Shown here: one piece after another, positions 1-19,537 of the stretch
Layout: each line of letters opens with the position of its first letter
Position numbering within the stretch: position 1 is the stretch's first letter
Source: Escherichia coli
GTDB lineage: Bacteria > Pseudomonadota > Gammaproteobacteria > Enterobacterales > Enterobacteriaceae
DNA length: 64,000 nucleotides
Direction: 5' to 3' (one strand)
Assembly (NCBI RefSeq): GCF_003334815.1
Contig: NZ_QOWO01000004.1
The notes under the pieces: model-generated
Seen by the model: only the letters and a program-made list of their open reading frames with translations
Databases searched by the model: none
Told to the model about the DNA's origin: nothing
Position numbers and translations under genes: made by a program

Positions 1-1
1 C

Positions 2-2785
2 GTTCCGCGCCTGGCAATGTATGCCCATAAAGAAGATTGCGGCAGTCTGCTGGTACAAATTAACCATCCGCAAGTCATCCGCACCTTGCTACTGGTGGCT
101 GATAAAAACAAACCCAGCCTGCAACGTGTGGCTAAATACAGTAAAAACTTCCCCCACGCGACGCTCGCCGCACTGGCAGAACTGCTGGCGTTAAAAGAAC
201 CACCAGCCCGCCCAGGTTATCCAATCATCGAAGACAAAAAGCTGCCTGCACAGCAAAAAGCACGCGATGAATACTGGCGTACGCTGTTACAAACGCTGAT
301 GGCATCGCAGCCACAACTGGCAGCAGAAGTGATGCCGTGGTTAAGTACTCAAGCCAGGGCAGTGCTGAATAGTTATTTATCGGCACCGCCAAAACCGGTT
401 ATTGATAGCACCGATAACAGCAGTCTGCCTGAAATGCTCGTTTCACCACCGTGGCGTAGTAAGAAAAAAATGACAGCTCCACGTCTTGATTTGGCACCGC
501 TCGAATTAACTCCGCAAATTTACTGGCAACCAGGCGAACAAGAGAGGCTTGCCGCCACTGAGTCTGCCCGTTATTTCAGCACGGAATCTCTTGCGGAACG
601 CATGGAACAAAAAAGTGGACGAGTTGTATTACAGGAACTGGGTTTTGGGGATGATGTATGGCTGTTTCTGAATTATATACTCCCCGGAAAACTGGATGCT
701 GCACGCAATTCACTCATTGTTCAGTGGCATTACTACCAGGGGCGGGTTGAAGAGATCCTGAATGGCTGGAACTCCCCGCAAGCACAATTAGCAGAACAGG
801 CGCTCCGCAGCGGTCACATAGAAGCGTTAATTAACATATGGGAAAATGACAACTTCTCACGTTATCGTCCGGAAAAGAGTGTCTGGAACCTGTATTTATT
901 GGCACAGTTGCCGCGTGAGATGGCTTTGACCTTCTGGCTGCGTATCATTGAGAAAAAGCATCTGTTCGCGGGTGAGGACTATTTTCTCAGTATCCTCGGA
1001 TTGGATGCGCTACCAGGTCTGCTGTTGGCTTTTTCACATCGTCCAAAAGAAACATTTCCGTTAATTTTAAATTTTGGCGCAACAGAACTGGCGCTGCCTG
1101 TTGCCCGCGTCTGGCGACGTTTCGCGGCGCAGCGTGATCTGGCTCGCCAGTGGATTTTACAATGGCCGGAACATACGGCTAGTGCACTTATCCCTCTTGT
1201 CTTTACCAAACCCAGCGATAATAGCGAAGCCGCATTACTTGCCCTGCGTTTACTGTACGAACAGGGACATGGCGAATTGCTACAAACCGTGGCAAACCGC
1301 TGGCAGCGTACAGATGTATGGTCTGCCCTGGAGCAGTTGCTTAAACAGGGTCCAATGGACATTTACCCGGCACGCATTCCAAAAGCCCCTGATTTCTGGC
1401 ATCCGCAAATGTGGTCCAGGCCGCGCCTTATCACTAATAATCAACCTGTTACCGATGACGCTCTGGAAATTATCGGCGAAATGCTGCGCTTTACCCAGGG
1501 GGGACGTTTTTATAGCGGGCTGGAACAACTGAAAACGTTCTGCCAGCCACAAACGCTGGCAGCTTTTGCCTGGGATCTCTTCACTGCGTGGCAACAAGCT
1601 GGTGCCCCCGTAAAAGACAACTGGGCATTTCTGGCGTTAAGTCTCTTTGGTGACGAAAGCACGGCACGGGATCTAACGACACAGATCCTCGGCTGGCCAC
1701 AAGAAGGCAAATCTGCCCGTGCTGTCAGTGGCCTGAACATCCTTACCCTGATGAATAATGATATGGCGCTGATACAGCTGCATCATATATCGCAACGGGC
1801 GAAATCCCGCCCCTTACGTGATAACGCGGCGGAATTTCTTCAGGTGGTCGCAGAAAATCGCGGGCTAAGCCAGGAAGAGCTAGCGGACAGATTAGTCCCA
1901 ACCCTGGGCCTTGATGATCCGCAGGCGTTGAGTTTTGATTTTGGTCCCCGGCAGTTTACCGTTCGCTTCGATGAAAACCTCAACCCGGTTATCTTTGATC
2001 AGCAAAACGTTCGCCAGAAAAGCGTTCCCCGGTTGCGCGCCGATGACGATCAACTGAAAGCGCCCGAGGCACTGGCCCGACTAAAAGGGCTAAAAAAAGA
2101 TGCCACTCAGGTGAGCAAAAACCTGCTCCCGCGTCTTGAAACGGCCCTACGTACCACCCGACGCTGGTCGCTGGCAGATTTTCATTCTCTGTTTGTTAAT
2201 CATCCCTTTACCCGTCTGGTTACCCAGCGATTAATATGGGGGGCTTATCCGGCAAATGAACCGCGTTGTTTACTCAACGCCTTTCGTGTGGCCGCAGAGG
2301 GGGAGTTCTGCAATGCGCAAGATGAGCCAATTGACCTGCCTGCGGACGCTCTGATTGGCATTGCCCACCCGTTAGAAATGACAGTAGAAATGCGCAGTGA
2401 ATTTGCACAGCTTTTTGCCGATTACGAAATTATGCCGCCTTTTCGCCAGTTGGCGCGGTGCACGGTGCTGCTCACACCTGACGAGTCAACCAGTAACAGC
2501 CTGACTCGCTGGGAAGGTAAATCCGCTACCGTTGGGCAGCTTATGGGAATGCGATACAAAGGCTGGGAGTCAGGCTATGAGGATGCATTTGTCTATGACC
2601 TGGGCGAGTACCGGCTGGTCCTTAAGTTTTCACCCGGTTTTAACCACTACAATGTTGATAGCAAAGCGCTAATGAGCTTCCGTTCTCTTCGAGTGTACCG
2701 TGACAATAAATCCGTCACTTTTGCCGAACTTGATGTGTTTGATTTGAGTGAGGCGTTAAGCGCACCTGACGTCATTTTCCATTAA
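2..2785 (+). CDS. yehI: Large DUF4132-type protein YehI, C-terminal ~920 codons; 5' end lies outside the window
   Basis: ORF track 17..2785; frame is open back to position 2, so the gene is truncated by the window edge. Assignment by size and position upstream of yehK-yehL. Confidence 0.75.
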   Translation, partial: VPRLAMYAHKEDCGSLLVQINHPQVIRTLLLVADKNKPSLQRVAKYSKNFPHATLAALAELLALKEPPARPGYPIIEDKKLPAQQKARDEYWRTLLQTLMASQPQLAAEVMPWLSTQARAVLNSYLSAPPKPVIDSTDNSSLPEMLVSPPWRSKKKMTAPRLDLAPLELTPQIYWQPGEQERLAATESARYFSTESLAERMEQKSGRVVLQELGFGDDVWLFLNYILPGKLDAARNSLIVQWHYYQGRVEEILNGWNSPQAQLAEQALRSGHIEALINIWENDNFSRYRPEKSVWNLYLLAQLPREMALTFWLRIIEKKHLFAGEDYFLSILGLDALPGLLLAFSHRPKETFPLILNFGATELALPVARVWRRFAAQRDLARQWILQWPEHTASALIPLVFTKPSDNSEAALLALRLLYEQGHGELLQTVANRWQRTDVWSALEQLLKQGPMDIYPARIPKAPDFWHPQMWSRPRLITNNQPVTDDALEIIGEMLRFTQGGRFYSGLEQLKTFCQPQTLAAFAWDLFTAWQQAGAPVKDNWAFLALSLFGDESTARDLTTQILGWPQEGKSARAVSGLNILTLMNNDMALIQLHHISQRAKSRPLRDNAAEFLQVVAENRGLSQEELADRLVPTLGLDDPQALSFDFGPRQFTVRFDENLNPVIFDQQNVRQKSVPRLRADDDQLKAPEALARLKGLKKDATQVSKNLLPRLETALRTTRRWSLADFHSLFVNHPFTRLVTQRLIWGAYPANEPRCLLNAFRVAAEGEFCNAQDEPIDLPADALIGIAHPLEMTVEMRSEFAQLFADYEIMPPFRQLARCTVLLTPDESTSNSLTRWEGKSATVGQLMGMRYKGWESGYEDAFVYDLGEYRLVLKFSPGFNHYNVDSKALMSFRSLRVYRDNKSVTFAELDVFDLSEALSAPDVIFH

Positions 2786-2845: not shown

Positions 2846-3163
2846 ATGATCGTGCAAAAAGAGCTAGTTGCTATTTACGATTATGAGGTCCCTGTACCTG
2901 AAGATCCGTTTTCCTTCAGACTTGAGATCCATAAATGCTCTGAATTATTTACAGGTTCCGTCTATCGACTGGAGCGATTCCGGCTACATCCAACATTTCA
3001 TCAACGTGATCGAGAAGATGCTGACCCGCTAATAAATGATGCGTTGATTTATATAAGAGATGAGTGTATTGATGAGCGGAAATTACGAGGTGAATCACCT
3101 GAAACTGTAATAGCAATTTTTAATCGTGAACTACAGAATATATTCAACCAAGAAATAGAATAA
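2846..3163 (+). CDS. yehK: Small acidic protein of unknown function (105 aa)
   Basis: ORF track 2846..3163; ATG preceded by GGGGAAAG; position between yehI and yehL. Confidence 0.7.
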   Translation: MIVQKELVAIYDYEVPVPEDPFSFRLEIHKCSELFTGSVYRLERFRLHPTFHQRDREDADPLINDALIYIRDECIDERKLRGESPETVIAIFNRELQNIFNQEIE

Positions 3164-3229
3164 TATACTCTAGATAATTAAAGTCGCAGCACATGCAACT
3201 TGAAGTATGACGAGTATAGCTTTCTTAAA

Positions 3230-3249
3230 GGGGGAAACGGTATTCCCCC
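3230..3249 (-). terminator. Hairpin downstream of toxin gene 1 (GGGGGAA / TTCCCCC stem); weak U-tract
   Basis: Inverted repeat read directly; on the minus strand only TTT follows the stem. Confidence 0.4.
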
Positions 3250-3272
3250 TTAGATGCGTTTCAATTTGCCCG

Positions 3273-3362
3273 TTACTTCAACAAATCAATCAACCGTAAC
3301 AGAGCCACTAATAACTCCAGTACGGCAATGAGCACGGTTAACTTTTGTGTCAGCGTGTCCAT
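3273..3362 (-). CDS. zorO: Type I toxin, 29-aa hydrophobic peptide MDTLTQKLTVLIAVLELLVALLRLIDLLK (ZorO-like)
   Basis: Minus-strand ATG at 3362 with AAGGAG 5 nt upstream, TAA at 3275..3273; one predicted transmembrane helix with charged ends. Not in the supplied ORF track (too short). Gene name from memory of the zor-orz family. Confidence 0.75.
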   Translation of the reverse strand: MDTLTQKLTVLIAVLELLVALLRLIDLLK

Positions 3363-3543
3363 CCGCTCTCCTTATTAAGGAGCGCAACACCAGCACCTTA
3401 CCCTTACACTGCCTGTTGATACTGGTTTACGTATGTTGGTACGAAACGTTGCTCTCCGGATCAGGGCACCGCCTGCGGCACCACCCGTCCGGCAGCCAGG
3501 ACTTAAAATTGGTCCGATCCGGCACAACCTCCCAACGGGCAGG

Positions 3544-3594
3544 ATTATAAATCTCACTCACTGAATTGCAATGGAGTGTGGATATGGTTATAAT
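3544..3594. promoter_or_regulatory. Back-to-back sigma70 promoters of unit 1
   Basis: Toxin promoter on minus strand: -10 TATAAT (complement of 3544..3549), 16-nt spacer, -35 TTGCAA 3566..3571. sRNA promoter on plus strand: same palindromic TTGCAA as -35, 17-nt spacer, -10 TATAAT 3589..3594. Confidence 0.55.
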
Positions 3595-3600
3595 TTATTC

Positions 3601-3681
3601 GTTGGTACGAAATGTTGCACAATCAGCAAGTTAGCGTCACTGTAGTAAATAAAAGAACCTGCCTCACCAGCAGGTTTTTTT
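3601..3681 (+). ncRNA. orzO: Antitoxin small RNA 1 (OrzO-like), ~80 nt
   Basis: Predicted start ~7 nt after the -10; 5' segment 3601..3620 GTTGGTACGAAATGTTGCAC is complementary to the toxin leader at 3435..3452; ends at an intrinsic terminator. Extent is predicted, not measured. Confidence 0.6.
3656..3681 (+). terminator. Intrinsic terminator of sRNA 1 (AACCTGC-CTCACCA-GCAGGTT followed by a T-run)
   Basis: 7-bp stem, 7-nt loop and a T7 run read directly. Confidence 0.7.
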
Positions 3682-3837
3682 ATTTACTGCGATCTACTTT
3701 CCAGATATTTTTTGCCAATAGCCCAACTTAAATATTCACATCCCGGTCAAATGGTGCGTTGAATATAAAATCGATGAATTTATAAATAAAAATGAGTTAT
3801 ATGATGAATTAATAAAAACAGTAATCATTTTATTAAA

Positions 3838-3857
3838 GGGGGAAGCGGTTTTCCCCC
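3838..3857 (-). terminator. Hairpin downstream of toxin gene 2
   Basis: GGGGGAA...TTCCCCC inverted repeat, as in unit 1. Confidence 0.4.
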
Positions 3858-3880
3858 TTAGATGCGTTTCAATTTGCCCG

Positions 3881-3970
3881 TTACTTCAACAAATCAATCA
3901 ACCGTAACAGAGCCACTAATAGCTCCAGTACAGCAATGAGCACGGTTAACTTTTGTGTCAGCGAGTCCAT
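3881..3970 (-). CDS. zorP: Type I toxin paralog, 29 aa MDSLTQKLTVLIAVLELLVALLRLIDLLK (ZorP-like)
   Basis: Same architecture as 3273..3362; one substitution (T3S); AAGGAG Shine-Dalgarno conserved. Confidence 0.75.
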   Translation of the reverse strand: MDSLTQKLTVLIAVLELLVALLRLIDLLK

Positions 3971-4151
3971 CCGCTCTCCTTATTAAGGAGCGCAACACCA
4001 GCACCTTACCCTTACACTGCCTGTCGATACTGGTTTACGTATGTTGGACCACGATGTTGCACTCCGGATCAGGGCACCACCTGCAGCACCCCCCGTCCGG
4101 TAGCCAGGACTTGAAATAGGTTCGATCCGGCGCAACGTCCCAACAGTCAGG

Positions 4152-4202
4152 ATTATAAATCTCATTATCTTAATTGCAACGGGGTCCAGCCGTGGTTATA
4201 AT
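4152..4202. promoter_or_regulatory. Back-to-back sigma70 promoters of unit 2
   Basis: Toxin -10 (complement of 4152..4157), shared -35 TTGCAA 4174..4179, sRNA -10 TATAAT 4197..4202; spacers 16 and 17 nt. Confidence 0.55.
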
Positions 4203-4208
4203 TCGTTC

Positions 4209-4291
4209 GTTGGAACACGATGTTGCACAGGCTGTGGTGTTAGGCCTGAAAATAGTAAATAAAAGAACCTGCCTCACCAGCAGGTTTTTTT
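4209..4291 (+). ncRNA. orzP: Antitoxin small RNA 2 (OrzP-like)
   Basis: 5' segment 4209..4228 GTTGGAACACGATGTTGCAC is complementary to the leader of toxin 2 at 4043..4062; intrinsic terminator at the 3' end. Confidence 0.6.
4266..4291 (+). terminator. Intrinsic terminator of sRNA 2
   Basis: Same AACCTGC...GCAGGTT stem and T-run as unit 1. Confidence 0.7.
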
Positions 4292-4402
4292 ATTTACTGC
4301 GATCTGCTTTCCAGATATTTTTTGCTCAAACAACTAATGCGCCAAACATTTATTGCGCGTAAAATATCGTTTATTTCATTAATACATTTCAGGGATGAAT
4401 AT

Positions 4403-5491
4403 ATGTCACCGCAGAATAATCATCTGCAGCGTCCGCCTGCTGCTGTGTTATACGCCGATGAACTGGCAAAATTAAAACAAAATGATAACGCTCCTTGCCC
4501 GCCCGGTTGGCAGTTAAGTTTGCCTGCGGCCCGTGCTTTTATCCTTGGCGATAGCGCGCAAAATATTAGCCGTAAAGTGGTGATTAGTCCCTCCGCTGTC
4601 GAACGTATGTTAGTCACTCTTGCCACCGGGCGCGGTTTGATGTTGGTGGGGGAACCTGGCACCGCAAAATCTCTCCTGTCTGAATTACTGGCAACCGCTA
4701 TTAGCGGCGATGCCGGGTTAACCATCCAGGGCGGCGCATCTACTACCGAAGATCAAATCAAGTACGGCTGGAACTACGCCCTGCTTATCAATCATGGTCC
4801 ATCAACGGAAGCGCTGGTCCCTGCCCCGCTTTACCAGGGAATGCGCGACGGCAAAATCGTCCGTTTTGAAGAGATAACGCGTACACCGCTGGAAGTGCAA
4901 GACTGTCTGTTAGGTATGCTTTCTGACAGGGTGATGACGGTGCCGGAACTCACTGGTGAAGCCAGTCAGCTCTATGCGCGAGAAGGCTTTAATATTATTG
5001 CCACTGCCAATACCCGCGATCGCGGCGTCAATGAAATGAGTGCTGCGCTAAAGCGTCGCTTCGATTTTGAAACTGTCTTTCCGATTATGGATTTCGCCCA
5101 GGAGCTGGAGCTTGTCGCCAGTGCTTCGGCGCGTTTGCTGGCCCATAGCGGTATTCCGCATAAAGTGCCTGACGCGGTACTGGAGTTACTGGTCCGCACC
5201 TTCCGCGATCTGCGTGCCAACGGCGAAAAGAAAACGTCAATGGATACACTAACAGCGATTATGTCCACCGCTGAAGCCGTGAACGTGGCCCACGCCGTAG
5301 GCGTCCGCGCCTGGTTTTTAGCGAATCGCGCAGGTGAGCCAGCCGACCTGGTGGACTGCATTGCCGGAACCATCGTCAAAGATAACGAAGAAGATCGCGC
5401 TCGTCTGCGCCGTTACTTCGAACAACGAGTCGCCACACATAAAGAAGCTCACTGGCAGGCTTATTATCAAGCCCGCCACCGCCTGCCGTGA
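4403..5491 (+). CDS. yehL: MoxR/RavA-like AAA+ ATPase (362 aa)
   Basis: ORF track 4322..5491 trimmed to ATG 4403; Walker A GEPGTAKS in the translation. Confidence 0.8.
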   Translation: MSPQNNHLQRPPAAVLYADELAKLKQNDNAPCPPGWQLSLPAARAFILGDSAQNISRKVVISPSAVERMLVTLATGRGLMLVGEPGTAKSLLSELLATAISGDAGLTIQGGASTTEDQIKYGWNYALLINHGPSTEALVPAPLYQGMRDGKIVRFEEITRTPLEVQDCLLGMLSDRVMTVPELTGEASQLYAREGFNIIATANTRDRGVNEMSAALKRRFDFETVFPIMDFAQELELVASASARLLAHSGIPHKVPDAVLELLVRTFRDLRANGEKKTSMDTLTAIMSTAEAVNVAHAVGVRAWFLANRAGEPADLVDCIAGTIVKDNEEDRARLRRYFEQRVATHKEAHWQAYYQARHRLP

Positions 5492-5501
5492 GGAAAGATG
5501 C

Positions 5502-7781
5502 ATGAGCGAGCCGTTAATTGTCGGCATCCGGCATCATAGTCCGGCCTGCGCCCGGCTGGTGAAATCGTTAATCGAAAGCCAGCGGCCACGATACGTATTG
5601 ATTGAAGGCCCGGCTGATTTTAATGACCGGGTAGACGAACTGTTTTTAGCCCACCAGCTTCCGGTAGCTATTTACAGTTATTGCCAGTATCAGGACGGTG
5701 CAGCCCCCGGGCGTGGTGCCTGGACGCCATTTGCTGAATTTTCGCCGGAGTGGCAGGCGCTACAAGCCGCACGTCGTATTCAGGCACAAACTTACTTCAT
5801 CGATTTGCCTTGCTGGGCGCAGAGTGAAGAAGTGGACGATTCGCCTGATACGCAAGAGGAAAGCCAGGCCTTGCTGCTGCGTGCCACCCGCATGGATAAC
5901 AGCGACACCCTGTGGGATCACTTGTTCGAAGATGAAAGCCAGCAAACTGCATTACCCTCTGCACTGGCGCACTATTTTGCCCAACTGCGGGGCGACTCCC
6001 CCGGAGATGCTCTCAATCGTCTGCGCGAAGCCTTTATGGCCCGCTGGATTGGATGGGCGATGCAGCAAAATAATGGCGACGTGTTAGTTGTCTGCGGTGG
6101 CTGGCACGCTCCGGTACTGGCAAAAATGTGGCGCGAATGCCCGCAGGAAATTAACACGCCAGAATTGCCGTCGCTGGCAGATGCCGTTACAGGTTGTTAT
6201 CTCACCCCCTACAGTGAAAAGCGCCTTGATGTGCTGGCAGGATACCTTTCCGGAATGCCTGCCCCGGTCTGGCAAAACTGGTGCTGGCAGTGGGGCTTAC
6301 AGCAGGCGGGAGAACAACTGCTAAAAACGGTTCTCACCCGTTTGCGCCAGCACAAGTTGCCTGCTTCGACCGCGGATATGGCTGCCGCACATCTGCATGC
6401 AATGGCACTGGCACAGTTGCGCGGTCATACACTACCGTTACGCACTGACTGGCTGGATGCCATAGCAGGATCGCTGATTAAAGAAGCCCTGAATGCGCCG
6501 TTGCCGTGGAGCTATCGCGGCGTTATTCATCCCGACACCGATCCGATTCTGCTAACGTTGATAGACACATTAGCGGGTGACGGATTCGGTAAACTTGCCC
6601 CTTCTACGCCACAACCTCCTCTGCCAAAAGATGTCACCTGCGAACTGGAACGTACCGCAATCTCCCTTCCGGCGGAGCTTACCTTAAATCGCTTTAACCC
6701 CAATGGACTAGCGCAAAGTCAGGTGTTACATCGGCTGGCAATACTGGAGATCCCAGGGATTGTGCGCCAGCAGGGAAGCACACTGACACTTGCAGGCAAC
6801 GGTGAAGAACACTGGAAATTAACCCGCCCGCTTAGCCAGCATGCGGCATTGATTGAGGCCGCCTGCTTTGGTGCCACACTCCAGGAAGCCGCACGCCATA
6901 AATTAGAAGCCGATATGCTGGACGCGGGTGGAATCGGCAGTATCACCACATGTCTTAGCCAGGCGGCGTTAGCGGGTCTGGCGTCCTTCAGTCAACAATT
7001 ACTGGAGCAACTCACATTATTAATCGCCCAGGAAAATCAATTTGCCGAAATGGGCCTGGCGCTGGAAGTGCTTTACGCCTTATGGCGGCTGGATGAAATT
7101 AGCGGTATGCAAGGCGCGCAGATATTACAAACGACGTTATGCGCGGCTACCGATCGCACGCTGTGGCTGTGTGAATCTAACGGCAGACCGGATGAAAAGG
7201 AGTTTCACGCTCACCTGCATAACTGGCAGGCGCTTTGCCATATCCTGCGCGATCTACATAACGGCGTTAATTTACCCGGCGTTTCTCTTTCTGCGGCGGT
7301 AGCCTTACTGGAGCGACGCAGTCAGGCGATTCATGCCCCGGCGCTGGATCGCGGCGCGGCTCTTGGCGCACTAATGCGTCTGGAACATCCCAACGCCAGT
7401 GCCGAAGCGGCGCTGATGATGCTGGCGCAGTTATCCCCGGCACAATCCGGCGAGGCGCTGCACGGTTTGCTGGCATTAGCCCGTCATCAACTGGCCTGTC
7501 AGCCGGCATTTATCGCCGGTTTCAGCAGTCATTTAAATCAACTAAGTGATGCCGATTTTACCAATGCCCTGCCCGATTTACGCGCGGCGATGGCCTGGCT
7601 ACCGCCACGAGAACGCGGGATGCTGGCGCATCAGGTGCTTGAGCATTATCAACTGGCGCAACTTCCCGTTTCGGCACTGCAAATGCCGTTGCATTGTCCT
7701 CCGCAAGCCATTGCACATCATCAACAACTCGAACAGCAGGCACTGGCATCGCTGCAAAACTGGGGAGTTTTCCATGTCTGA
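5502..7781 (+). CDS. yehM: Large protein of unknown function (759 aa), partner of yehL/yehP
   Basis: ORF track 5334..7781 trimmed to ATG 5502 (starts MSEPLIVGIRHH); no motif I recognise. Confidence 0.75.
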   Translation: MSEPLIVGIRHHSPACARLVKSLIESQRPRYVLIEGPADFNDRVDELFLAHQLPVAIYSYCQYQDGAAPGRGAWTPFAEFSPEWQALQAARRIQAQTYFIDLPCWAQSEEVDDSPDTQEESQALLLRATRMDNSDTLWDHLFEDESQQTALPSALAHYFAQLRGDSPGDALNRLREAFMARWIGWAMQQNNGDVLVVCGGWHAPVLAKMWRECPQEINTPELPSLADAVTGCYLTPYSEKRLDVLAGYLSGMPAPVWQNWCWQWGLQQAGEQLLKTVLTRLRQHKLPASTADMAAAHLHAMALAQLRGHTLPLRTDWLDAIAGSLIKEALNAPLPWSYRGVIHPDTDPILLTLIDTLAGDGFGKLAPSTPQPPLPKDVTCELERTAISLPAELTLNRFNPNGLAQSQVLHRLAILEIPGIVRQQGSTLTLAGNGEEHWKLTRPLSQHAALIEAACFGATLQEAARHKLEADMLDAGGIGSITTCLSQAALAGLASFSQQLLEQLTLLIAQENQFAEMGLALEVLYALWRLDEISGMQGAQILQTTLCAATDRTLWLCESNGRPDEKEFHAHLHNWQALCHILRDLHNGVNLPGVSLSAAVALLERRSQAIHAPALDRGAALGALMRLEHPNASAEAALMMLAQLSPAQSGEALHGLLALARHQLACQPAFIAGFSSHLNQLSDADFTNALPDLRAAMAWLPPRERGMLAHQVLEHYQLAQLPVSALQMPLHCPPQAIAHHQQLEQQALASLQNWGVFHV

Positions 7782-8910
7782 ACTGAACGATCTTCTGACC
7801 ACCCGTGAGCTACAACGCTGGCGATTAATTCTTGGCGAAGCGGCAGAAACGACGCTTTGTGGGCTGGATGACAACGCCCGGCAGATAGACCACGCGCTGG
7901 AATGGCTGTATGGGCGCGATCCTGAACGGCTCCAGCGTGGTGAACGCTCCGGTGGATTAGGTGGCTCAAATCTCACCACCCCTGAGTGGATCAACAGTAT
8001 TCACACGCTGTTTCCGCAACAGGTGATTGAGCGGCTGGAAAGCGATGCCGTACTGCGCTATGGCATTGAAGATGTGGTGACGAATCTCGACGTGCTGGAA
8101 CGTATGCAGCCTTCTGAAAGCCTGCTACGCGCCGTTTTGCATACCAAACATCTGATGAACCCCGAAGTACTGGCTACCGCCCGCCGGATAGTGCGCCAGG
8201 TTGTTGAAGAAATTATGGCTCGACTGGCAAAGGAAGTTCGTCAGGCTTTTTCTGGTGTCCGCGATCGCCGTCGCCGCTCATCTATTCCACTGGCGCGAAA
8301 CTTTGATTTCAAAAGTACTCTACGCGCCAACCTGCAACACTGGCACCCACAACACGGCAAGTTGTATATCGAATCCCCCCGCTTTAACAGCCGCATTAAA
8401 CGCCAAAGCGAACAATGGCAACTGGTCTTACTGGTTGATCAAAGCGGCTCGATGGTCGATTCGGTGATCCACTCTGCGGTGATGGCGGCCTGTTTATGGC
8501 AGTTACCCGGCATTCGTACCCATCTGGTCGCTTTTGACACCAGTGTGGTTGATCTCACGGCAGACGTTGCCGATCCGGTAGAGTTATTAATGAAAGTGCA
8601 ATTAGGCGGCGGAACCAATATCGCCAGTGCCGTGGAGTATGGTCGGCAACTTATTGAACAACCAGCGAAAAGCGTCATTATCCTCGTGAGCGATTTTTAC
8701 GAAGGGGGTTCATCATCATTACTGACGCATCAGGTGAAAAAGTGTGTCCAGAGCGGCATCAAAGTGCTGGGACTGGCAGCGCTCGATAGCACAGCAACAC
8801 CTTGCTATGACCACGATACGGCCCAGGCGCTGGTAAATGTCGGCGCACAAATAGCCGCCATGACACCGGGCGAGCTGGCATCATGGCTTGCGGAGAATCT
8901 TCAGTCATGA
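7774..8910 (+). CDS. yehP: von Willebrand factor A domain protein (378 aa)
   Basis: ATG 7774 overlaps the yehM end by 8 nt; MIDAS-like DQSGS motif (LLVDQSGSM). Confidence 0.8.
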   Translation: MSELNDLLTTRELQRWRLILGEAAETTLCGLDDNARQIDHALEWLYGRDPERLQRGERSGGLGGSNLTTPEWINSIHTLFPQQVIERLESDAVLRYGIEDVVTNLDVLERMQPSESLLRAVLHTKHLMNPEVLATARRIVRQVVEEIMARLAKEVRQAFSGVRDRRRRSSIPLARNFDFKSTLRANLQHWHPQHGKLYIESPRFNSRIKRQSEQWQLVLLVDQSGSMVDSVIHSAVMAACLWQLPGIRTHLVAFDTSVVDLTADVADPVELLMKVQLGGGTNIASAVEYGRQLIEQPAKSVIILVSDFYEGGSSSLLTHQVKKCVQSGIKVLGLAALDSTATPCYDHDTAQALVNVGAQIAAMTPGELASWLAENLQS

Positions 8911-10904
8911 ATTCACTACGTCCGGAATTATTAGAACTGACACCGCAGGCCCTGACGGCGTTAAGCAATGCCGGTTTTGTTAAGCGCAGTCTTAAGGAAC
9001 TGGAAAATGGCAACGTCCCGGAAATCAGCCATGAGAACGGCGCTTTAATCGCCACCTTCAGTGACGGTGTCCGTACCCAGCTGGCGAACGGCCAGGCACT
9101 GAAAGAGGCTCAGTGCAGCTGCGGGGCCAGCGGTATGTGCCGTCATCACGTGATGCTGGTGTTAAGTTATCAACGACTTTGTGCTACCGCCCAGCCTACA
9201 GGAAAAGAAGAGGAATGGGATCCGGCAATCTGGCTGGAAGAACTGGCTACCCTTCCCGATGCCACCCGCAAACGCGCACAGGCGCTGGTCGCTAAAGGCA
9301 TCACCATTGAGTTGTTCTGTGCGCCGGGTGAAATTCCCTCTGCCCGCTTACCGATGAGCGATGTGCGTTTTTATTCCCGCAGCAGTATTCGTTTCGCCCG
9401 TTGTGATTGTATTGAAGGCACACTTTGCGAACATGTCGTACTGGCTGTGCAGGCCTTCGTCGAGGCCAAAACTCAGCAAGCGGAATTTAACCATTTGATC
9501 TGGCAGATGCGCAGCGAACACGTCACATCATCTGACGATCCGTTTGCCAGCGAAGAAGGCAAAACGTGTCGTCAATATGTTCAGCAATTAAGCCAGGCAT
9601 TATGGCTGAGCGGCATCAGCCAGCCGCTTATTCACTACGAGGCCGCTTTCAGCCGCGCGCAGCAGGCGGCGGAACGCTGCAACTGGCGATGGGTGAGTGA
9701 ATCGCTACGGCAACTGCGCGCCAGCGTTGATGCCTTCCACGCCCGCGCAAGCCATTATCATGCCGGAGAATGCTTGTGTCAGCTTGCGGCATTAAACAGT
9801 CGATTAAATTGCGCACACGAAATGGCGCAGCGCGACAGTGTTGGTGAAATTCCTCCCATGCCGTGGCGCACGGTCGTTGGCGCAGGCATTGCCGGAGAAG
9901 CAAAGCTTGATCATCTGCGGCTGGTGTCTTTAGGTATGCGTTGCTGGCAGGATATTGAGCATTATGGTTTACGCATCTGGTTTACCGATCCCGACACCGG
10001 CAGTATTTTGCACCTTTCGCGCAGTTGGCCGCGAAGCGAACAGGAAAACTCACCGGCAGCTACGCGTCGGCTGTTTAGTTTTCAGGCTGGCGCACTGGCG
10101 GGTGGGCAAATTGTTTCACAAGCAGCAAAACGCAGTGCCGATGGCGAGCTGCTGTTAGCTACCCGCAACCGCTTAAGCAGCGTTGTGCCGCTGTCGCCTG
10201 ATGCCTGGCAAATGTTGAGCGCGCCGTTACGCCAGCCGGGCATTGTGGCTTTGCGGGAATATTTACGCCAGCGTCCCCCCGCCTGCATACGGCCTCTTAA
10301 TCAGGTCGATAACTTATTTATTCTGCCGGTCGCTGAGTGTATTTCGCTCGGTTGGGATAGCAGCCGCCAGACGCTGGATGCGCAGGTCATTAGCGGCGAA
10401 GGTGAAGATAATCTGCTGACGTTATCACTGCCAGCCTCAGCCAGCGCGCCTTATGCCGTTGAACGCATGGCGGCGCTTTTGCAACAAACAGAGGACCCCG
10501 TGTGTCTGGTTTCTGGCTTTGTCAGTTTTGTAGAGGGGCAATTGACACTGGAACCACAGGTAATGATGACAAAGACTCGTGCCTGGGCGCTGGACGCTGA
10601 AACTGCGCCTGTGGCACCGCTACCTTCTGCCAGCGTGCCTGTGCCGTCTACTGCTCATCAGTTGCTGATACGCTGCCAGGCGTTACTTATTCAACTGCTC
10701 CATAACGGCTGGCGCTATCAGGAACAAAGTGCTATTGGTCAGGCAGAGTTGCTGGCGAATGACCTCACCGCCGTGGGTTTTTATCGGCTGGCACATGTGT
10801 TGGGACAATTTCGTAATACAGAAAGCGAGGCACGGGTAGAAGCAATGAATAACGTTGTTTTGCTTTGCGAACAATTATTCCCCATGCTTCAGCAACAAGG
10901 ATGA
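8907..10904 (+). CDS. yehQ: SWIM zinc-finger protein (about 665 aa)
   Basis: ATG 8907 overlaps the yehP stop (ATGA); alternative in-frame ATG at 8883. Two C-x-C-x(n)-C-x-H motifs (CSCGASGMCRHH, CDCIEGTLCEH). Confidence 0.7.
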   Translation: MNSLRPELLELTPQALTALSNAGFVKRSLKELENGNVPEISHENGALIATFSDGVRTQLANGQALKEAQCSCGASGMCRHHVMLVLSYQRLCATAQPTGKEEEWDPAIWLEELATLPDATRKRAQALVAKGITIELFCAPGEIPSARLPMSDVRFYSRSSIRFARCDCIEGTLCEHVVLAVQAFVEAKTQQAEFNHLIWQMRSEHVTSSDDPFASEEGKTCRQYVQQLSQALWLSGISQPLIHYEAAFSRAQQAAERCNWRWVSESLRQLRASVDAFHARASHYHAGECLCQLAALNSRLNCAHEMAQRDSVGEIPPMPWRTVVGAGIAGEAKLDHLRLVSLGMRCWQDIEHYGLRIWFTDPDTGSILHLSRSWPRSEQENSPAATRRLFSFQAGALAGGQIVSQAAKRSADGELLLATRNRLSSVVPLSPDAWQMLSAPLRQPGIVALREYLRQRPPACIRPLNQVDNLFILPVAECISLGWDSSRQTLDAQVISGEGEDNLLTLSLPASASAPYAVERMAALLQQTEDPVCLVSGFVSFVEGQLTLEPQVMMTKTRAWALDAETAPVAPLPSASVPVPSTAHQLLIRCQALLIQLLHNGWRYQEQSAIGQAELLANDLTAVGFYRLAHVLGQFRNTESEARVEAMNNVVLLCEQLFPMLQQQG

Positions 10905-11028
10905 AATAGTGCTTTTTACTAAGAGTTCTACTCCAGTTCCGGACTGCTCACGCCACGGTATTAGGCATATCCTATATAGCCCCTGGTGAGAGTCACCAGT
11001 TCCTTGATTAAATAAAATGGAGTTTTAC

Positions 11029-11490
11029 ATGAAGGCTTTCAATAAGCTGTTTTCCCTCGTTGTTGCATCTGTTCTGGTTTTCTCTCTTGCTGGCTGCGGT
11101 GACAAAGAAGAATCGAAGAAATTCAGCGCCAATCTGAACGGCACTGAAATTGCCATTACCTATGTCTACAAAGGTGACAAGGTGCTTAAGCAATCTTCTG
11201 AAACCAAAATTCAATTTGCCTCCATTGGTGCAACCACCAAAGAAGATGCTGCCAAGACACTTGAGCCGTTAAGCGCCAAATACAAAAACATCGCGGGTGT
11301 TGAAGAAAAATTAACCTATACCGATACCTACGCGCAGGAAAACGTGACTATCGATATGGAAAAAGTGGATTTTAAAGCCCTGCAGGGTATTTCAGGAATC
11401 AACGTTTCTGCTGAAGATGCCAAAAAAGGTATCACTATGGCGCAAATGGAACTGGTGATGAAAGCCGCTGGTTTTAAAGAAGTGAAATAA
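11029..11490 (+). CDS. yehR: Lipoprotein (153 aa), signal peptide with LAGC lipobox
   Basis: ORF track 11017..11490 trimmed to the second ATG at 11029. Confidence 0.75.
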   Translation: MKAFNKLFSLVVASVLVFSLAGCGDKEESKKFSANLNGTEIAITYVYKGDKVLKQSSETKIQFASIGATTKEDAAKTLEPLSAKYKNIAGVEEKLTYTDTYAQENVTIDMEKVDFKALQGISGINVSAEDAKKGITMAQMELVMKAAGFKEVK

Positions 11491-11496
11491 TCTGTC

Positions 11497-11521
11497 GGCG
11501 GCCATGTTTCGCATGGCCGCC
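11497..11521. terminator. GC-rich 10-bp hairpin between convergent yehR and yehS; no clear U-tract
   Basis: GGCGGCCATG-TTTCG-CATGGCCGCC read directly. Confidence 0.4.
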
Positions 11522-11530
11522 ATACCCGTC

Positions 11531-12001
11531 TTAGCTTTTCTTCACATGCTGGCGCGCTGCCAGTCCACGCAGAAAATAACGTAAAAATTGATCGCCGCAT
11601 TCGCGGAAGTTTTTATGATCCGGTGCACGCATCATCGCCGTAATTTCCGGCATCGAAACGCGGAACTGCTGTTCGGTGAGGATCGCCAGAATGTCATCGG
11701 TTTTCAGCGAAAACGCGATGCGTAATTTTTTCAGCACGATGTTGTTATTAATGCGACGTTCCGGCTCCAGTGCCGGAGCAGACTCATCCTTGCCGCGTTT
11801 TTCATAAATCAGGCCATTGAGGAATGACGACAAAACAATGTCCGGACAACGCTGAAAACCCTCTTCGTCTTCTTTACGTAGCCAGACGGCGATCTGTTCC
11901 GCGGTGGCTTCGACATTACCCAGCGCCAGAATACGCACCAGGTCATTATTATTGGCTTTCAAAATGTAGCGCACGCTGCGCAGAATATCGTTACTTAGCA
12001 T
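11531..12001 (-). CDS. yehS: Small protein of unknown function (156 aa)
   Basis: ORF track 11531..12058 trimmed to the Met at 12001. Confidence 0.7.
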   Translation of the reverse strand: MLSNDILRSVRYILKANNNDLVRILALGNVEATAEQIAVWLRKEDEEGFQRCPDIVLSSFLNGLIYEKRGKDESAPALEPERRINNNIVLKKLRIAFSLKTDDILAILTEQQFRVSMPEITAMMRAPDHKNFRECGDQFLRYFLRGLAARQHVKKS

Positions 12002-12047
12002 GAGGCCTTCAGGTGTTGATGAGGCAAAAAGCCATTTTAGCAGTCTT

Positions 12048-12767
12048 TTACAGGCCAATCGCCTCTTTTAAGCTTTTCAGATAACGGCGGCTGACCGGCA
12101 CGGTTAAGCCATTACGCAAAATCAACTCGGCCTGGCCGTTATCTTCCAGACGAATCTCCTGTAAATGCGCGAGGTTAACCAGATACTGACGATGGCAGCG
12201 CAGTAGTGGTGTACGACTTTCCAGGGTACGTAATGTCAATTCGGTAAAGCCCTCTTTCCCTTCGTGGCTGGTAACGTAGACACCGCTCATCCGACTGCTG
12301 ACAAATGCCACATCTTTCATTTGCAGCAAATAAATCCGACTATGCCCAGTACAAGGGATAAATTTCAGCGCCTGTTGATTTTCTGGTAACAGCGAAACAT
12401 CCTGCTTGCTGCGTTCCTGCCGCAAACGCGCCAGCGTTTTCTCCAGTCGCGCTTCATCAATTGGCTTCAGCAGATAATCAAAGGCGTGTTCTTCAAAGGC
12501 TTTAATGGCGTATTCGTCAAACGCGGTGAGAAAAACAATATACGGACGATGTTCCGGGTCGAGCATCCCCACCATTTCCAGACCACTGATGCGCGGCATC
12601 TGGATATCGAGAAACAGCACATCCGGGCGCAGTTTATGCACCGCGCCGATCCCTTCCACGGCGTTTGAACACTCACCAACGATTTCAATATCGCTCTGCT
12701 CCTGCAAAAATACGCGCAGGTTCTCCCGTGCTAACGGTTCATCATCGACAATTAAGACTTTAATCAT
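12048..12767 (-). CDS. btsR: LytTR-family response regulator (239 aa)
   Basis: Receiver motif [12 protein letters not shown]; ATG 12767 overlaps the btsS stop. Confidence 0.85.
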
Positions 12768-14449
12768 GCCTCGTCCCTCCATGGTAGTCGTAACGTTATT
12801 CGGGTGTAACTATCAGGCTCACAGGCGACGCTTATCCCATAGTCATCGCCAAACCGTTCACGTAAACGCTTATCCACCAGATTCATCCCCAGCCCACTGG
12901 CATTGGTTACCGGTTGATACAAACCGGCATTGTCTTCGATCTCCAGCATTAAATGTTGCCCCTCACGTCGGGCGCTGATTGCCACTCGCCCTGTATCCAG
13001 CAGTTGTGATGTCCCATGTTTAATGGCGTTTTCCACTATCGGTTGCAGGGTAAACGCGGGCAATTGCTGCTGGGATAATTCTTGCGGAATAGCAATGTTG
13101 ACCTGCAACCGCGACTGGAAGCGCGCCTTTTCAATTTGCAGATAAGCATTCACATGTTCAATTTCGTCGGCGAGAGTAACAAACTCCGAAGGCCGCTTTA
13201 AGTTTTTGCGGAAAAAAGTGGAAAGATACTGCACCAGCTGGCTGGCCTGTTCGCTGTCGCGACGGATCACCGCTTTAATGGTGTTAAGCGCATTAAACAA
13301 AAAATGGGGATTCACCTGGGCGTGAAGCAGTTTGATCTCTGACTGGGTGAGCATCGCTTTTTGCCGCTCATATTGCCCGGCAAGGATCTGCGCCGAAAGC
13401 AGTTGCGCAATCCCCTCACCCAACGTGCGGTTGATTGAACTGAATAAACGGTTTTTGGCTTCATACAATTTGATGGTGCCCATCACCCGCTGATTTTCAC
13501 CACGCAACGGAATTACCAGCGTCGACCCCAGTTTGCATTGCGGATGCAAAGAGCAACGGTAAGGTACTTCGTTGCCATCAGCGTAGACCACTTCACCGGT
13601 TTCAATCGCTTTTAAGGTATAAGTCGAAGAAATCGGTTTGCCGGGTAAATGGTGGTCGTCACCAATTCCGGTAAAGGCTAGCAATTTCTCTCGATCGGTA
13701 ATCGCGACTGCACCAATATCCAGCTCCTGATACAGCACCTGTGCCACTTTCATGCTGTTCACTTCGTTAAACCCCTGGCGCAAAATGCCTTCCGTCGAGG
13801 CCGCCACTTTCAGCGCAGTGGCAGAAAAAGCTGAAGTGTATTTTTCAAACATCGCGCGTTTATCGAGCAATATACGCATAAACAGCGCCGCGCCGACGGT
13901 ATTGGTGACCATCATTGGCGCAGCAATATTACTCACCAGACGTACCGCATCTTCATAAGGTCGGGCGATCGCCAGGATGATCAACATTTGCACCATTTCA
14001 GCGACGAACGTGACGGCACCGGCGGTAATGGGGTTAAAGACTTTATCAGTGCGCCCGCGACGGATCAGAATGCTGTGTACCAGGCCGCCGAGCAATCCTT
14101 CAACGATGGTTGAGATCATGCAACTTAGCGCGGTCATGCCCCCCATCGAATATCGATGTAAGCCGCCGGTCAGACCAACCAGCCCACCGACGACCGGACC
14201 GCCGAGTAAGCCGCCCATTACCGCGCCTATCGCACGGGTATTGGCAATAGAATCGTCAATGTGCAACCCAAACCAGGTGCCCATGATGCAGAAGATGGAA
14301 AAGACGATGTAGCAGAGAAATTTATGCGGCAGACGAACCGTGACCTGCATTAACGGTATGAATAATGGCGTTTTACTCATTAACCACGCAATGACTAAAA
14401 AAACGCACATCTGCTGAAGCAGCAGCAACACCAGATTAAAATCGTACAT
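12764..14449 (-). CDS. btsS: LytS-type sensor histidine kinase (561 aa)
   Basis: Multi-pass membrane N-terminus and histidine-kinase core containing [10 protein letters not shown]. Confidence 0.85.
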
Positions 14450-14670
14450 ACCCGCAAACCACACTTCCCTTTAAAACGCGTAACATACATTGCCTGCGTT
14501 TAACTTTCTTTGAACTCTTGCAGAAAAATGAGAATTCGTGAGTACGATCACTCAAAATCGCCTGGCAAAAATAAAATCACCCTATAGATGCACAAAAAAC
14601 GGGCAAAACTACCTGGTTCGCAAAACTGCGTCTAAAGTTAAACCGGGACCTCGCGAGCAAGGGTGAGACG

Positions 14671-15402
14671 ATGGCGCTTTACACAATTGGTGAAGTGGCG
14701 TTGCTTTGTGATATTAATCCTGTCACGTTACGCGCGTGGCAGAGGCGTTACGGATTGCTGAAACCGCAACGGACAGACGGTGGTCATCGGCTGTTCAACG
14801 ATGCCGATATTGACCGGATCCGCGAGATCAAACGCTGGATCGACAACGGCGTGCAGGTCAGCAAAGTTAAAATGCTGCTCAGTAATGAAAATGTTGATGT
14901 GCAGAACGGCTGGCGCGATCAGCAAGAAACATTACTGACTTACCTGCAAAGCGGCAATCTACATAGCCTGCGAACGTGGATCAAAGAGCGCGGTCAGGAT
15001 TACCCCGCCCAGACACTCACCACACATCTGTTTATTCCTCTGCGCCGACGGCTTCAGTGCCAACAACCGACTCTCCAGGCGCTGCTGGCGATCCTCGACG
15101 GCGTACTGATCAACTACATCGCCATTTGTCTGGCTTCGGCACGTAAAAAACAGGGTAAAGATGCGCTGGTGGTTGGCTGGAATATTCAGGATACCACCCG
15201 TCTGTGGCTGGAGGGCTGGATTGCCAGTCAACAAGGATGGCGCATTGATGTCCTCGCCCACTCGCTCAATCAACTACGCCCTGAACTATTCGAAGGCCGT
15301 ACATTGCTGGTGTGGTGCGGTGAAAATCGAACCTCCGCCCAACAGCAGCAACTCACCAGTTGGCAAGAACAAGGCCATGATATTTTCCCACTCGGCATTT
15401 AA
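14671..15402 (+). CDS. mlrA: MerR-family transcriptional regulator (243 aa)
   Basis: N-terminal MerR helix-turn-helix (YTIGEVALLCDINPVTLRAWQRRYGL). Confidence 0.85.
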   Translation: MALYTIGEVALLCDINPVTLRAWQRRYGLLKPQRTDGGHRLFNDADIDRIREIKRWIDNGVQVSKVKMLLSNENVDVQNGWRDQQETLLTYLQSGNLHSLRTWIKERGQDYPAQTLTTHLFIPLRRRLQCQQPTLQALLAILDGVLINYIAICLASARKKQGKDALVVGWNIQDTTRLWLEGWIASQQGWRIDVLAHSLNQLRPELFEGRTLLVWCGENRTSAQQQQLTSWQEQGHDIFPLGI

Positions 15403-15461
15403 TGATTCGTTAACAAATGCGCTTTACTGTACAATCCTTTCGTTAACATAAGGAGTGCATT

Positions 15462-15569
15462 ATGCGCATAGCTAAAATTGGGGTCATCGCCCTGTTCCTG
15501 TTTATGGCGTTAGGCGGAATTGGTGGCGTCATGCTCGCAGGTTATACCTTTATTTTGCGTGCTGGCTAA
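15462..15569 (+). CDS. yohO: 35-aa small membrane protein [35 protein letters not shown]
   Basis: ATG 15462 with AAGGAG 6 nt upstream; 3' end overlaps convergent yehW by 20 nt. Not in the ORF track. Confidence 0.65.
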
Positions 15570-16281
15570 GCGCCTGCACCAGCCTTTCAAACAGGCGGTC
15601 TGCGATGATCGCCGCCAGTGCCACCAGTAACGCCCCCTGGATCACATACGCGGTATTAAATCCGCTAAGCCCGATGATGATGGGCGTACCCAGCGTGCTG
15701 GCCCCTACCGTTGAGGCGATCGTCGCCGTACCAATGTTGATAATCACCGAAGTTCGCACGCCCGCCAGAATCACCGGAGCCGCCAGCGGTAGCTCGACCT
15801 TACGCAGTCGCTGACCACGACTCATTCCCATACCCTTCGCAACTTCTGTCACGCTGGCATCAATCGCTCCCAGCCCGGCAAGTGTCGCCTGCAGGACGGG
15901 CAGCACGCCGTATAGGATCAAGGCGATAATCGCTGGTTGCAGACCAAAGCCGATCACCGGAACAGCAATCGCCAGCACCGCAACGGGCGGAAAAGTCTGC
16001 CCAACGGCGGCAATAGTTTCCACCAGTGGGCGAAATTCCGCGCCCCACGGGCGAGTGACAGCAATTCCGGCACCAGTACCAATGATCACCGCAAACAAAC
16101 TCGAAATTCCCACCAGCCAGAAATGAGCCAGTGCCAGAGCTGCAAAACTTTCTTGCTGATAAACGGGTCGTGGCAGTTGTGGGAACAAGGCAGCAAACAG
16201 CGGCTGGCTGTAAGGCAGCCAGAAAATCAGTGCCACAAACAAAGCAATGAGCCAGAACAGCGGATCGCGCAACATCTTCAT
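15550..16281 (-). CDS. yehW: ABC transporter permease (glycine betaine/osmoprotectant system)
   Basis: ORF track; hydrophobic multi-pass protein; synteny. Confidence 0.85.
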
Positions 16282-16285
16282 ACGC

Positions 16286-18362: not shown

Positions 18363-18368
18363 GGGAAA

Positions 18369-19286: not shown

Positions 19287-19429
19287 GATGCTTTCCTCAT
19301 TCTTTTACTGTTGTTTTCAGCGAATTAAGAGAAAAGCATAGTTGATAATGGCGGGGTTAGCTTGAGCGGAAGGATTCAGTTGCAGAATCAGATAAATACT
19401 TAAGAGGCATATTCGGTCCGGCGTTTCCT

Positions 19430-19466
19430 GCCGGATGCGGCGCGAGCGCCTTATCCGGCCTACAAA
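19430..19466. repeat. REP element
   Basis: GCCGGATGCGGCGCGAGCGCCTTATCCGGCCTACAAA matches the REP consensus as I recall it. Confidence 0.8.
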
Positions 19467-19505
19467 GGGCGAAAATTCAGCAAGTTAAGATATGAACATC
19501 AGGCA

Positions 19506-19528
19506 AAGGGCGCAAACGTCGCGCCCTT
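19506..19528 (-). terminator. Hairpin just downstream of bglX
   Basis: AAGGGCGC-AAACGTC-GCGCCCTT. Confidence 0.45.
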
Positions 19529-19537
19529 ACAAAAGCA

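Follow-up and report, generated by a model that had tools for sequence, protein, structure and literature searches.

The yehLMPQ cassette of Escherichia coli was analyzed in a 64,000-nucleotide stretch of contig NZ_QOWO01000004.1 (RefSeq assembly GCF_003334815.1), hereafter called the window. The cassette encodes a MoxR-type AAA+ ATPase (YehL), a DUF5682 protein (YehM), a CoxE-type von Willebrand factor A (vWA) protein (YehP), and a protein with two SWIM-type zinc fingers (YehQ). Based on comparisons of gene neighborhoods, we conclude that the conserved unit has five parts rather than four, the additional part being one or more giant proteins of the DUF4132 family, and that its order is giant(s)-YehL-YehM-YehP-YehQ. 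We tentatively propose, giving the idea slightly less than an even chance, that these parts constitute a cytosolic, self-contained five-component MoxR-vWA remodeling machine that has a hydrolase-like scaffold and operates in a context of nucleic acids and DNA damage.

The first 12 kb of the window are 100% identical to the chromosome of E. coli 52F4, where RefSeq assigns the names yehI, yehK, yehL, yehM, yehP, and yehQ. The four cassette genes lie on the + strand at 4403..5491 (yehL, 362 amino acids), 5502..7781 (yehM, 759 amino acids), 7774..8910 (yehP, 378 amino acids), and 8907..10904 (yehQ, 665 amino acids). The yehL stop codon, which ends at 5491, is followed by a 10-nucleotide spacer containing GGAAAG and then by the yehM ATG at 5502. 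The 8-nucleotide sequence ATGTCTGA at 7774-7781 is the overlap of yehM and yehP, and the ATGA at 8907-8910 is common to the end of yehP and the start of yehQ. All four genes are intact, and they are translationally coupled. No transmembrane segments were found in any component.

A total of 83 loci with 10-kb flanks were examined by tblastn and profile hidden Markov models. In 74 of these, one to three tandem DUF4132 giants are encoded together with YehL, YehM, YehP, and YehQ, on one strand and in that order, whereas two Burkholderia loci have the giant placed after YehQ. Contig ends truncate most of the other nine loci, and the clear variants, which carry YehL, YehM, and YehP only, are the two designated L037 and L041. 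In Erwinia and Serratia, the gene for the giant ends 22-60 nucleotides upstream of yehL. When each species was represented by one genome, a scan yielded at least 600 pattern matches, and a YehM relative is encoded in at least 560 of the species genomes. The taxa include Enterobacterales, Xanthomonadales, Burkholderiales, Neisseriales, Deltaproteobacteria/Myxococcota, and many actinomycete genera, and the genes that flank the cassette are unrelated from genus to genus.

An initial annotation of this DNA, made from the sequence alone, had proposed as plausible an uncharacterized MoxR-vWA system of several components, among them the SWIM protein and a DUF4132 protein of more than 1200 amino acids (YehI) encoded upstream. 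Domain content and synteny support this proposal. The packed and overlapping arrangement of the four genes is as it had been described, the gene order recurs in several phyla amid unrelated flanks, and the AAA+, vWA, and SWIM assignments held up in domain searches, as did that of YehI. Unconfirmed domains and a lack of linkage in other genomes had both been named in advance as grounds for refutation, and neither was observed.

YehL consists of a single AAA_5, or MoxR-type, AAA+ module (Pfam 2.6e-34). Its Walker A motif, or P-loop, at G83-S90 (GEPGTAKS; window 4649..4672, + strand, placed by translation) is invariant in 80 homologues. Across 80 genomes, 152 of the 362 positions are at least 97% identical, including the Walker A residues, FEE155-157, N203, and R218/R219. 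With its Walker A and B, sensor, and arginine residues conserved in this way, YehL looks like an active, catalytically competent MoxR AAA+ ATPase. The protein has given its name to one of seven published MoxR subfamilies, and E. coli K-12 has just two MoxR proteins, the characterized RavA and YehL (PMC3893208). A nearby vWA gene, which serves as a criterion of this subfamily, is present here as yehP, two genes downstream of yehL in the same operon.

YehP matches the Pfam families VWA_CoxE (4e-72) and VWA_2 (5e-8), and the protein ends with its vWA domain. The DxSxS element of its metal ion-dependent adhesion site (MIDAS), D222-S226 (DQSGS; 8437..8451, + strand, placed by translation), is invariant, as is the full MIDAS set of D222, S224, S226, T281, and D307. 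Over 78 genomes, 124 positions of YehP are at least 97% identical.

YehM had been described in the initial annotation as lacking any recognizable motif, and this description can be revised. Pfam family DUF5682 (PF18934) covers residues 20-715 of the protein (6.9e-96), and the family comprises 2240 cluster representatives (50% identity) at E≤0.001. An AlphaFold2 model of YehM (predicted local distance difference test [pLDDT] 93.2, predicted template modeling score 0.91, from 88 homologues) contains a predicted N-terminal alpha/beta domain of approximately residues 1-215 (5502..6146, + strand) and a C-terminal HEAT/ARM-like alpha-solenoid of approximately residues 445-759 (6834..7778, + strand). 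The N-terminal domain shares the alpha/beta fold of the TIKI/TraB/PrgY/ChaN/EreA superfamily, and the heme-binding protein ChaN is among its top structural neighbors. The other top structural matches are HEAT/ARM solenoids, which fit the C-terminal half. A Foldseek search with YehM gave nothing significant.

The residues of YehM that are invariant in the family (R10, H11, H12, E35, H51, E83, D101, E143, R175, and H202) crowd in the N-terminal domain (40 invariant columns among 17 diverse sequences). In the model, H11 is located in strand 1 within a G-x-x-H motif, E35 is at the end of strand 2, and H202 belongs to a GGxH motif in the last strand. These three residues sit at the strand ends expected for the catalytic His, Glu, and His residues in TIKI/TraB and EreB, to which they may be equivalent. 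We regard the conserved residues as a putative site of catalysis or ligand binding. YehM nevertheless differs from members of the TIKI/TraB/PrgY/ChaN/EreA/HopBA1 superfamily in several respects. It has no TIKI/TraB sequence-profile match in Pfam (E≤10, including TraB_PrgY_gumN), in NCBIfam, or in profile searches of the PDB; it carries R10, H12, H51, E83, D101, E143, and R175 as extra invariant residues; and the same chain as its alpha/beta domain also contains a winged-helix-like region and a HEAT solenoid.

YehM and YehP form one polypeptide in two independent contigs (P0232/L086 and P0264/L087), both of which keep the usual neighbors. These fusions argue for direct contact between YehM and YehP. 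A third candidate (P0170) was set aside because its arginine-rich linker looks out of frame and may be an artifact. In L086, the complete cassette with its fusion is directly followed by a second, divergent module (13598-19543) that encodes a 501-amino acid protein, a HEAT_2 protein of 580 amino acids, a further AAA_5 ATPase, and a further DUF5682 protein, which suggests that MoxR-DUF5682 cores can pair with other helical-repeat partners. The loci L037 and L041 belong to Sandaracinaceae and deltaproteobacterial metagenome-assembled genomes. Their genes for YehL, YehM, and YehP are followed by an open reading frame (ORF) of approximately 310-350 amino acids that resembles tetratricopeptide repeat (TPR) proteins and weakly matches the TPR part of PA2778-family peptidases. 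When alternative partners were sought in these two loci, only this ORF and unrelated benzoyl-CoA reductase genes were seen.

Both SWIM fingers of YehQ show the CxCx5CxH signature. The first, C70-H80 (CSCGASGMCRH; 9114..9146, + strand), matches Pfam SWIM weakly (0.017), and its residues C70, C72, C78, R79, and H80 are invariant in 61 YehQ sequences. The second, C166-H176 (CDCIEGTLCEH; 9402..9434, + strand), gives a weaker score (0.21), but in the same set the consensus CDCxxGxxCxH is kept and D167 is invariant. A structural model of YehQ (pLDDT 92.3, from 61 homologues) places a helix after each finger (H79-95 and H175-190) and predicts a domain order of SWIM, SWIM, four-helix bundle, oligonucleotide/oligosaccharide-binding (OB) fold, OB fold, and helical C-terminus. 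The predicted OB domains are two five-stranded barrels with OB topology, of which the first (approximately residues 331-428; 9897..10190, + strand) is basic, with a pI of 9.2, and the second (approximately residues 470-561; 10314..10589, + strand) is acidic, with a pI of 4.1. The model yielded OB-fold matches to single-stranded DNA-binding proteins and one match to ZSWIM8. Compared to eukaryotic ZSWIM proteins, the cassette is without cullin-binding elements. A sequence search for solved structures found none for YehQ.

The giant encoded nearest to the E. coli cassette is YehI, a protein of 1210 amino acids with a C-terminal DUF4132 domain (7.6e-46) and no WGR domain. The 3' 2785 nucleotides of yehI occupy 1..2785 (+ strand), and the gene starts 847 nucleotides before the window. 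A second DUF4132 giant, MolR-like and 1264 amino acids long, is encoded just upstream of the window, directly after metG. It carries an N-terminal WGR domain, and the N-terminus of YehI begins just past the position equivalent to this domain. The two paralogues are 39% identical, and two DUF4132 giants of Lentzea are 66% identical. Among 34 giants that were scanned, DUF4132 was present in 33 and an N-terminal WGR domain in 22. The WGR part of the family profile matches the WGR structure 2ra8 (1.9e-19) and PARP3, and sequence searches found no solved structures for the giants beyond this domain. Unlike PARP-type WGR proteins, the giants have no PARP catalytic domain, and the domain likeness as such says nothing yet about the ligand.

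Giants are frequently present in more than one copy. Within 10 kb upstream of yehL, there is one DUF4132 copy in 40 loci, two in 15, and three in 19, such that 34 of the 83 loci have two or three copies. Between E. coli and Klebsiella oxytoca, sequence identity is 91% for YehL, 84% for YehP, 70% for YehM, 63% for YehQ, and 60% for YehI, and the same ranking is observed across phyla. This ranking indicates that the motor-adaptor core is constrained and that the peripheral subunits evolve fast. Judged by their sequences, the DUF4132 giants appear to be a multiplied, fast-evolving module.

Two published reports tie the giants or their domain families to DNA damage. The E. coli gene molR is listed as LexA-regulated, and its SOS box is known (PMC6590174). 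In the strain examined herein, a LexA-box-like sequence, CTGGATAAAATTACAG, is located 10-25 nucleotides upstream of the ATG of the MolR-like gene (locus L085, 3930-3945; NZ_CM147848.1), or approximately 4.7 kb upstream of window position 1. Because the MolR-like gene ends only 9 nucleotides before yehI, the two genes are probably co-transcribed, and yehI may therefore be SOS-inducible by read-through. In Deinococcus radiodurans, DRA0166 (DUF4132) and DR2173 (WGR) have DdrO-binding motifs upstream, and their induction by mitomycin C depends on IrrE (PMC8533742). Thus, two unrelated damage regulons, LexA and DdrO/IrrE, seem to converge on the DUF4132 and WGR families.

By analogy with the characterized MoxR-vWA pairs RavA-ViaA, CbbQ-CbbO, NorQ-NorD, and CoxD-CoxE (PMC3893208, PMC7159879) and with midasin, we envision that a YehL hexamer would bind YehP, that the MIDAS of YehP would grip an acidic residue of a client, and that ATP hydrolysis by YehL would pull on or remodel this client. 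YehM would hold the assembly together and add a hydrolase site, perhaps peptidase- or esterase-like, or a ligand-binding site. Target recognition would fall to YehQ, which evolves fast, and to the multiplied giants, or these proteins would themselves be the clients. The setting would be nucleic-acid or nucleoprotein transactions tied to DNA damage, which we consider the most likely context because WGR, SWIM, and OB partners are typical nucleic-acid binders, and because of the LexA control of molR and the induction reported for Deinococcus. We also entertain a more specific version, which is doubtful at this time, wherein the E. coli core genome would encode an unrecognized pathway tied to DNA damage: SOS-induced giants and YehQ sense nucleic acid that is damaged or single-stranded, or else a nucleoprotein complex that has stalled, YehL-YehP remodels or extracts the target, and the TIKI/TraB-like domain of YehM cleaves a protein or adduct. 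If true, the system would be a bacterial counterpart, in its logic, of WGR-dependent damage sensing coupled to AAA+ extraction.

Several observations weigh against a role tied to nucleic acids and DNA damage. SWIM and OB folds also serve protein-protein contacts, 12 of the 34 giants (YehI among them) are without a WGR domain, and L037 and L041 have neither a SWIM protein nor a giant nearby. A single match to the LexA box in E. coli is not significant by itself. The link to LexA is that of molR alone, and the yehLMPQ genes are parted from molR-yehI-yehK by two toxin-antitoxin loci with their terminators. No promoter-positioned SOS box was found before yehI or yehL in E. coli. Likewise, searches of the 83 loci with the simple patterns CTGT-N8-ACAG (at most one mismatch) and GAAC-N4-GTTC gave no convincing conserved SOS boxes upstream of the giants or of yehL. 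Moreover, yehLMPQ is reported to be repressed by H-NS/StpA rather than SOS-induced; mutation of hns/stpA relieves the repression of yehL and yehM, and an intergenic H-NS site is present (PMC3686432).

Alternatively, the unit could be an anti-phage or conflict system in which the MoxR-vWA pair acts as an ATP-dependent threshold switch, YehM as the third component combines a peptidase-like domain with an array of helical repeats, and the diversifying giants and YehQ serve as effectors or as sensors of invaders. We regard this possibility as unlikely, although a number of features speak for it. The architecture parallels that of published conflict systems in which a MoxR-vWA pair is joined by a third component (PMC7159879), and YehL weakly matches the bpMoxR profile (0.0021). 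The DUF4132 paralogues are arranged in tandem and diverge quickly, with YehI and YehQ evolving fastest. The patchy distribution, mostly in actinomycetes, myxobacteria, and Burkholderiales and amid unrelated flanks, resembles that produced by horizontal gene transfer, and plasmid copies occur occasionally in Iodobacter, Rhizobium, and Streptomyces. Silencing by H-NS/StpA fits such a role, and induction through the SOS or radiation/desiccation response could equally signal phage attack. However, PADLOC-DB v2 has no family that matches any of the seven proteins tested (YehI, YehK, YehL, YehM, YehP, YehQ, and the MolR-like protein), which leaves no assignment to a known defense system, and no toxic effector domain (nuclease, TIR, pore, or NADase) was recognized in any component. 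The cassette is also core in E. coli, being present in 5363 of 5426 complete genomes (98.8%), with 5203 instances that are nearly full-length, chromosomal, and single-copy. It is essentially absent from phages, given that tblastn of 50,697 phage records matched only one bacterial-looking contig labeled "UNVERIFIED," and a phage origin was rejected accordingly. Finally, SWIM, WGR, YehL, and DUF4132 are not mentioned by Kaur et al. (PMC7159879).

A machine for cofactor or metal insertion, or for maturation, comparable to CoxD-CoxE (for Mo-Cu CO dehydrogenase), NorQ-NorD, CobN-CobS-CobT, or BchH-BchI-BchD, seems to us quite improbable. In this scheme, the substrate would be held by the DUF4132 giant as the large subunit, and a metal or tetrapyrrole by the ChaN-like part of YehM. 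The components fit in number and size (a small AAA+ protein, a vWA protein, and a giant of approximately 1200-1400 amino acids), and ChaN is one of the top structural neighbors of the YehM N-terminal domain. YehP belongs to VWA_CoxE and weakly matches the cobaltochelatase model TIGR02442 (2.3e-4), and YehL has weak matches to Mg_chelatase and to a PHROG family annotated "porphyrin biosynthesis." AAA_5, the family of YehL, is presumably also that of CobS, and molR was historically named as a "molybdate metabolism regulator." Nonetheless, none of the 83 loci has a linked gene for a metalloenzyme, for cofactor biosynthesis, or for a transporter; the giants match DUF4132 and WGR only and show no homology to CobN or BchH; and WGR, SWIM, and OB domains would be unexpected in a chelatase. 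Furthermore, the molybdate genes of Deinococcus showed no co-variation with its genes for DUF4132 and WGR proteins (PMC8533742). The view that the E. coli genes are chance neighbors with no joint function can practically be dismissed. It draws on the distance of approximately 1.6 kb between the E. coli DUF4132 genes and yehLMPQ, but it is refuted by the order and strand kept across phyla and by the YehM::YehP fusions, and the overlapping start and stop codons also speak against it.

Comparisons with known systems place the five-component remodeling machine that we favor apart from each of them. Like RavA-ViaA, CbbQ-CbbO, NorQ-NorD, and CoxD-CoxE, it has a MoxR AAA+ protein beside a vWA protein with a complete MIDAS. 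Unlike these pairs, it adds a DUF5682 protein, a double-SWIM/OB protein, and DUF4132 giants, and it has no linked client enzyme. With the ternary conflict systems (VMAP, iSTAND; PMC7159879), it shares a CoxD-CoxE-type pair, a large third component, diversifying partners, and a distribution enriched in actinomycetes and myxobacteria. However, YehP carries no fused effector domains, the third component is DUF5682 rather than VMAP or iSTAND, and the cassette is core in E. coli. As in this system, the class I chelatases combine a small AAA+ motor with a vWA/MIDAS subunit and with a large subunit of approximately 1200-1400 amino acids, and weak profile matches connect the two; but the giants are not homologues of CobN or BchH, the SWIM/OB and DUF5682 proteins are extra, and there is no tetrapyrrole gene context. 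Midasin (Rea1), a dynein-related AAA ATPase of eukaryotes, carries a MIDAS domain and strips factors from a nucleoprotein particle. Its AAA_5 motor and client-gripping MIDAS make it a working analogy for what the Yeh proteins could do, at the level of the shared Pfam AAA_5 and vWA classes, and it differs in being a single giant polypeptide that contains six AAA modules.

The cassette and its MoxR subfamily have already been catalogued, and the domains are already named in RefSeq, so the bare observation is not new. Full-text literature searches found no functional study of YehL or of the operon (the names yehL, yehM, yehP, and yehQ occurred only in lists), and no paper on DUF5682, on the five-gene unit, or on a SWIM zinc finger together with MoxR and von Willebrand. 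What is new is the delimitation of a five-part unit from which YehK and the toxin-antitoxin loci are excluded, the predicted folds of YehM and YehQ, the multiplied giants, and the two ties to damage regulons. The combination of a MoxR-vWA pair with a TraB-like/HEAT protein, a SWIM/OB protein, and multiplied WGR-DUF4132 giants is unlike every characterized MoxR system. Among AAA+ machines, MoxR-vWA pairs rank with the most widespread and yet with the least understood, and a system that is found in at least 560 species genomes and belongs to the E. coli core genome now becomes testable. If the link to damage holds, the unit would represent a new branch of the SOS response, and if the conflict reading holds, a defense system would be hidden in the core genome.

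Near-universal presence in E. coli is accompanied by signs of gene decay. Hundreds of sequences located on long contigs represent truncated YehM alleles of 508, 424, and 600 amino acids (P0037, P0052, and P0017, respectively), which suggests recurrent pseudogenization of yehM in some lineages despite the near-universal locus. In an ST131 sublineage, a resistance transposon resides in the metG/DUF4132/yeh region (PMC9334617). Together, the truncated alleles and this transposon indicate that the system is dispensable.

The E. coli locus also carries additions that are not part of the five-component unit. Between yehI and yehL, a distance of approximately 1.6 kb is filled by yehK and by toxin-antitoxin loci. 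The gene yehK (2846-3163) encodes an acidic protein of 105 amino acids that has no match in Pfam, NCBIfam, or PADLOC and no homologue beside the cassette in the 83 loci from other species; by this measure, the gene seems to have been added specifically in Escherichia. The 1.24 kb that separate yehK from yehL (3164-4402) contain two tandem zorO/orzO type I toxin-antitoxin loci. Their antisense OrzO-P RNAs (Rfam RF02083) are located on the + strand at 3608-3681 (99.9 bits) and 4216-4291 (88.8 bits), and their hydrophobic 29-amino acid ZorO toxins, which differ by one residue (T3S), are encoded on the - strand at 3273-3362 and 3881-3970. Each unit has divergent, near-consensus TTGCAA-N16/17-TATAAT promoters and a shared bidirectional terminator. 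Two copies are present in 3390 of the 5426 complete E. coli genomes, and fewer in the others. Given the five-gene order without YehK elsewhere, yehK and the zor/orz loci appear to have been inserted later, splitting an ancestral five-gene operon. The initial annotation had counted the toxin-antitoxin insertion in favor of a multi-component system, but as E. coli-specific additions neither this insertion nor YehK lends it weight.

Copies of the cassette on plasmids are rare (38 records), and several of these are mis-assigned chromosomes or megaplasmids. The contig matched among the phage records (L088; MT835988.1, "UNVERIFIED Bacteriophage sp.," 14.2 kb, 44.7% GC) encodes distant homologues of YehL, YehM, and YehP. 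Next come genes for a polysaccharide deacetylase and a RarA-like ATPase and an unassigned ORF of 1216 amino acids, and the contig looks bacterial rather than phage-derived. Six PHROGs v4 families (phrog_30700, 33984, 31592, 29006, 20839, and 36602) contain near-identical, full-length YehM (in two halves), YehP, YehQ, and YehI/MolR. These families are probably host DNA from mis-delimited prophages, not phage genes.

No consensus sigma-70 promoter was found between the orzO terminator and yehL, and no intrinsic terminator was found downstream of yehQ. The region after yehQ (11017-14464) contains the ordinary genes yehR (a lipoprotein), yehS, and btsSR (a pyruvate-sensing two-component system), which, judging by other genera, appear to be unlinked to the cassette. 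Between the stop codon of yehI and the start of yehK (2793-2814), there is a perfect 8-base pair GC-rich hairpin (CGGGCAGT...ACTGCCCG) with no T-tract on the + strand, which could be an attenuator, an RNA-stability element, or a chance occurrence.

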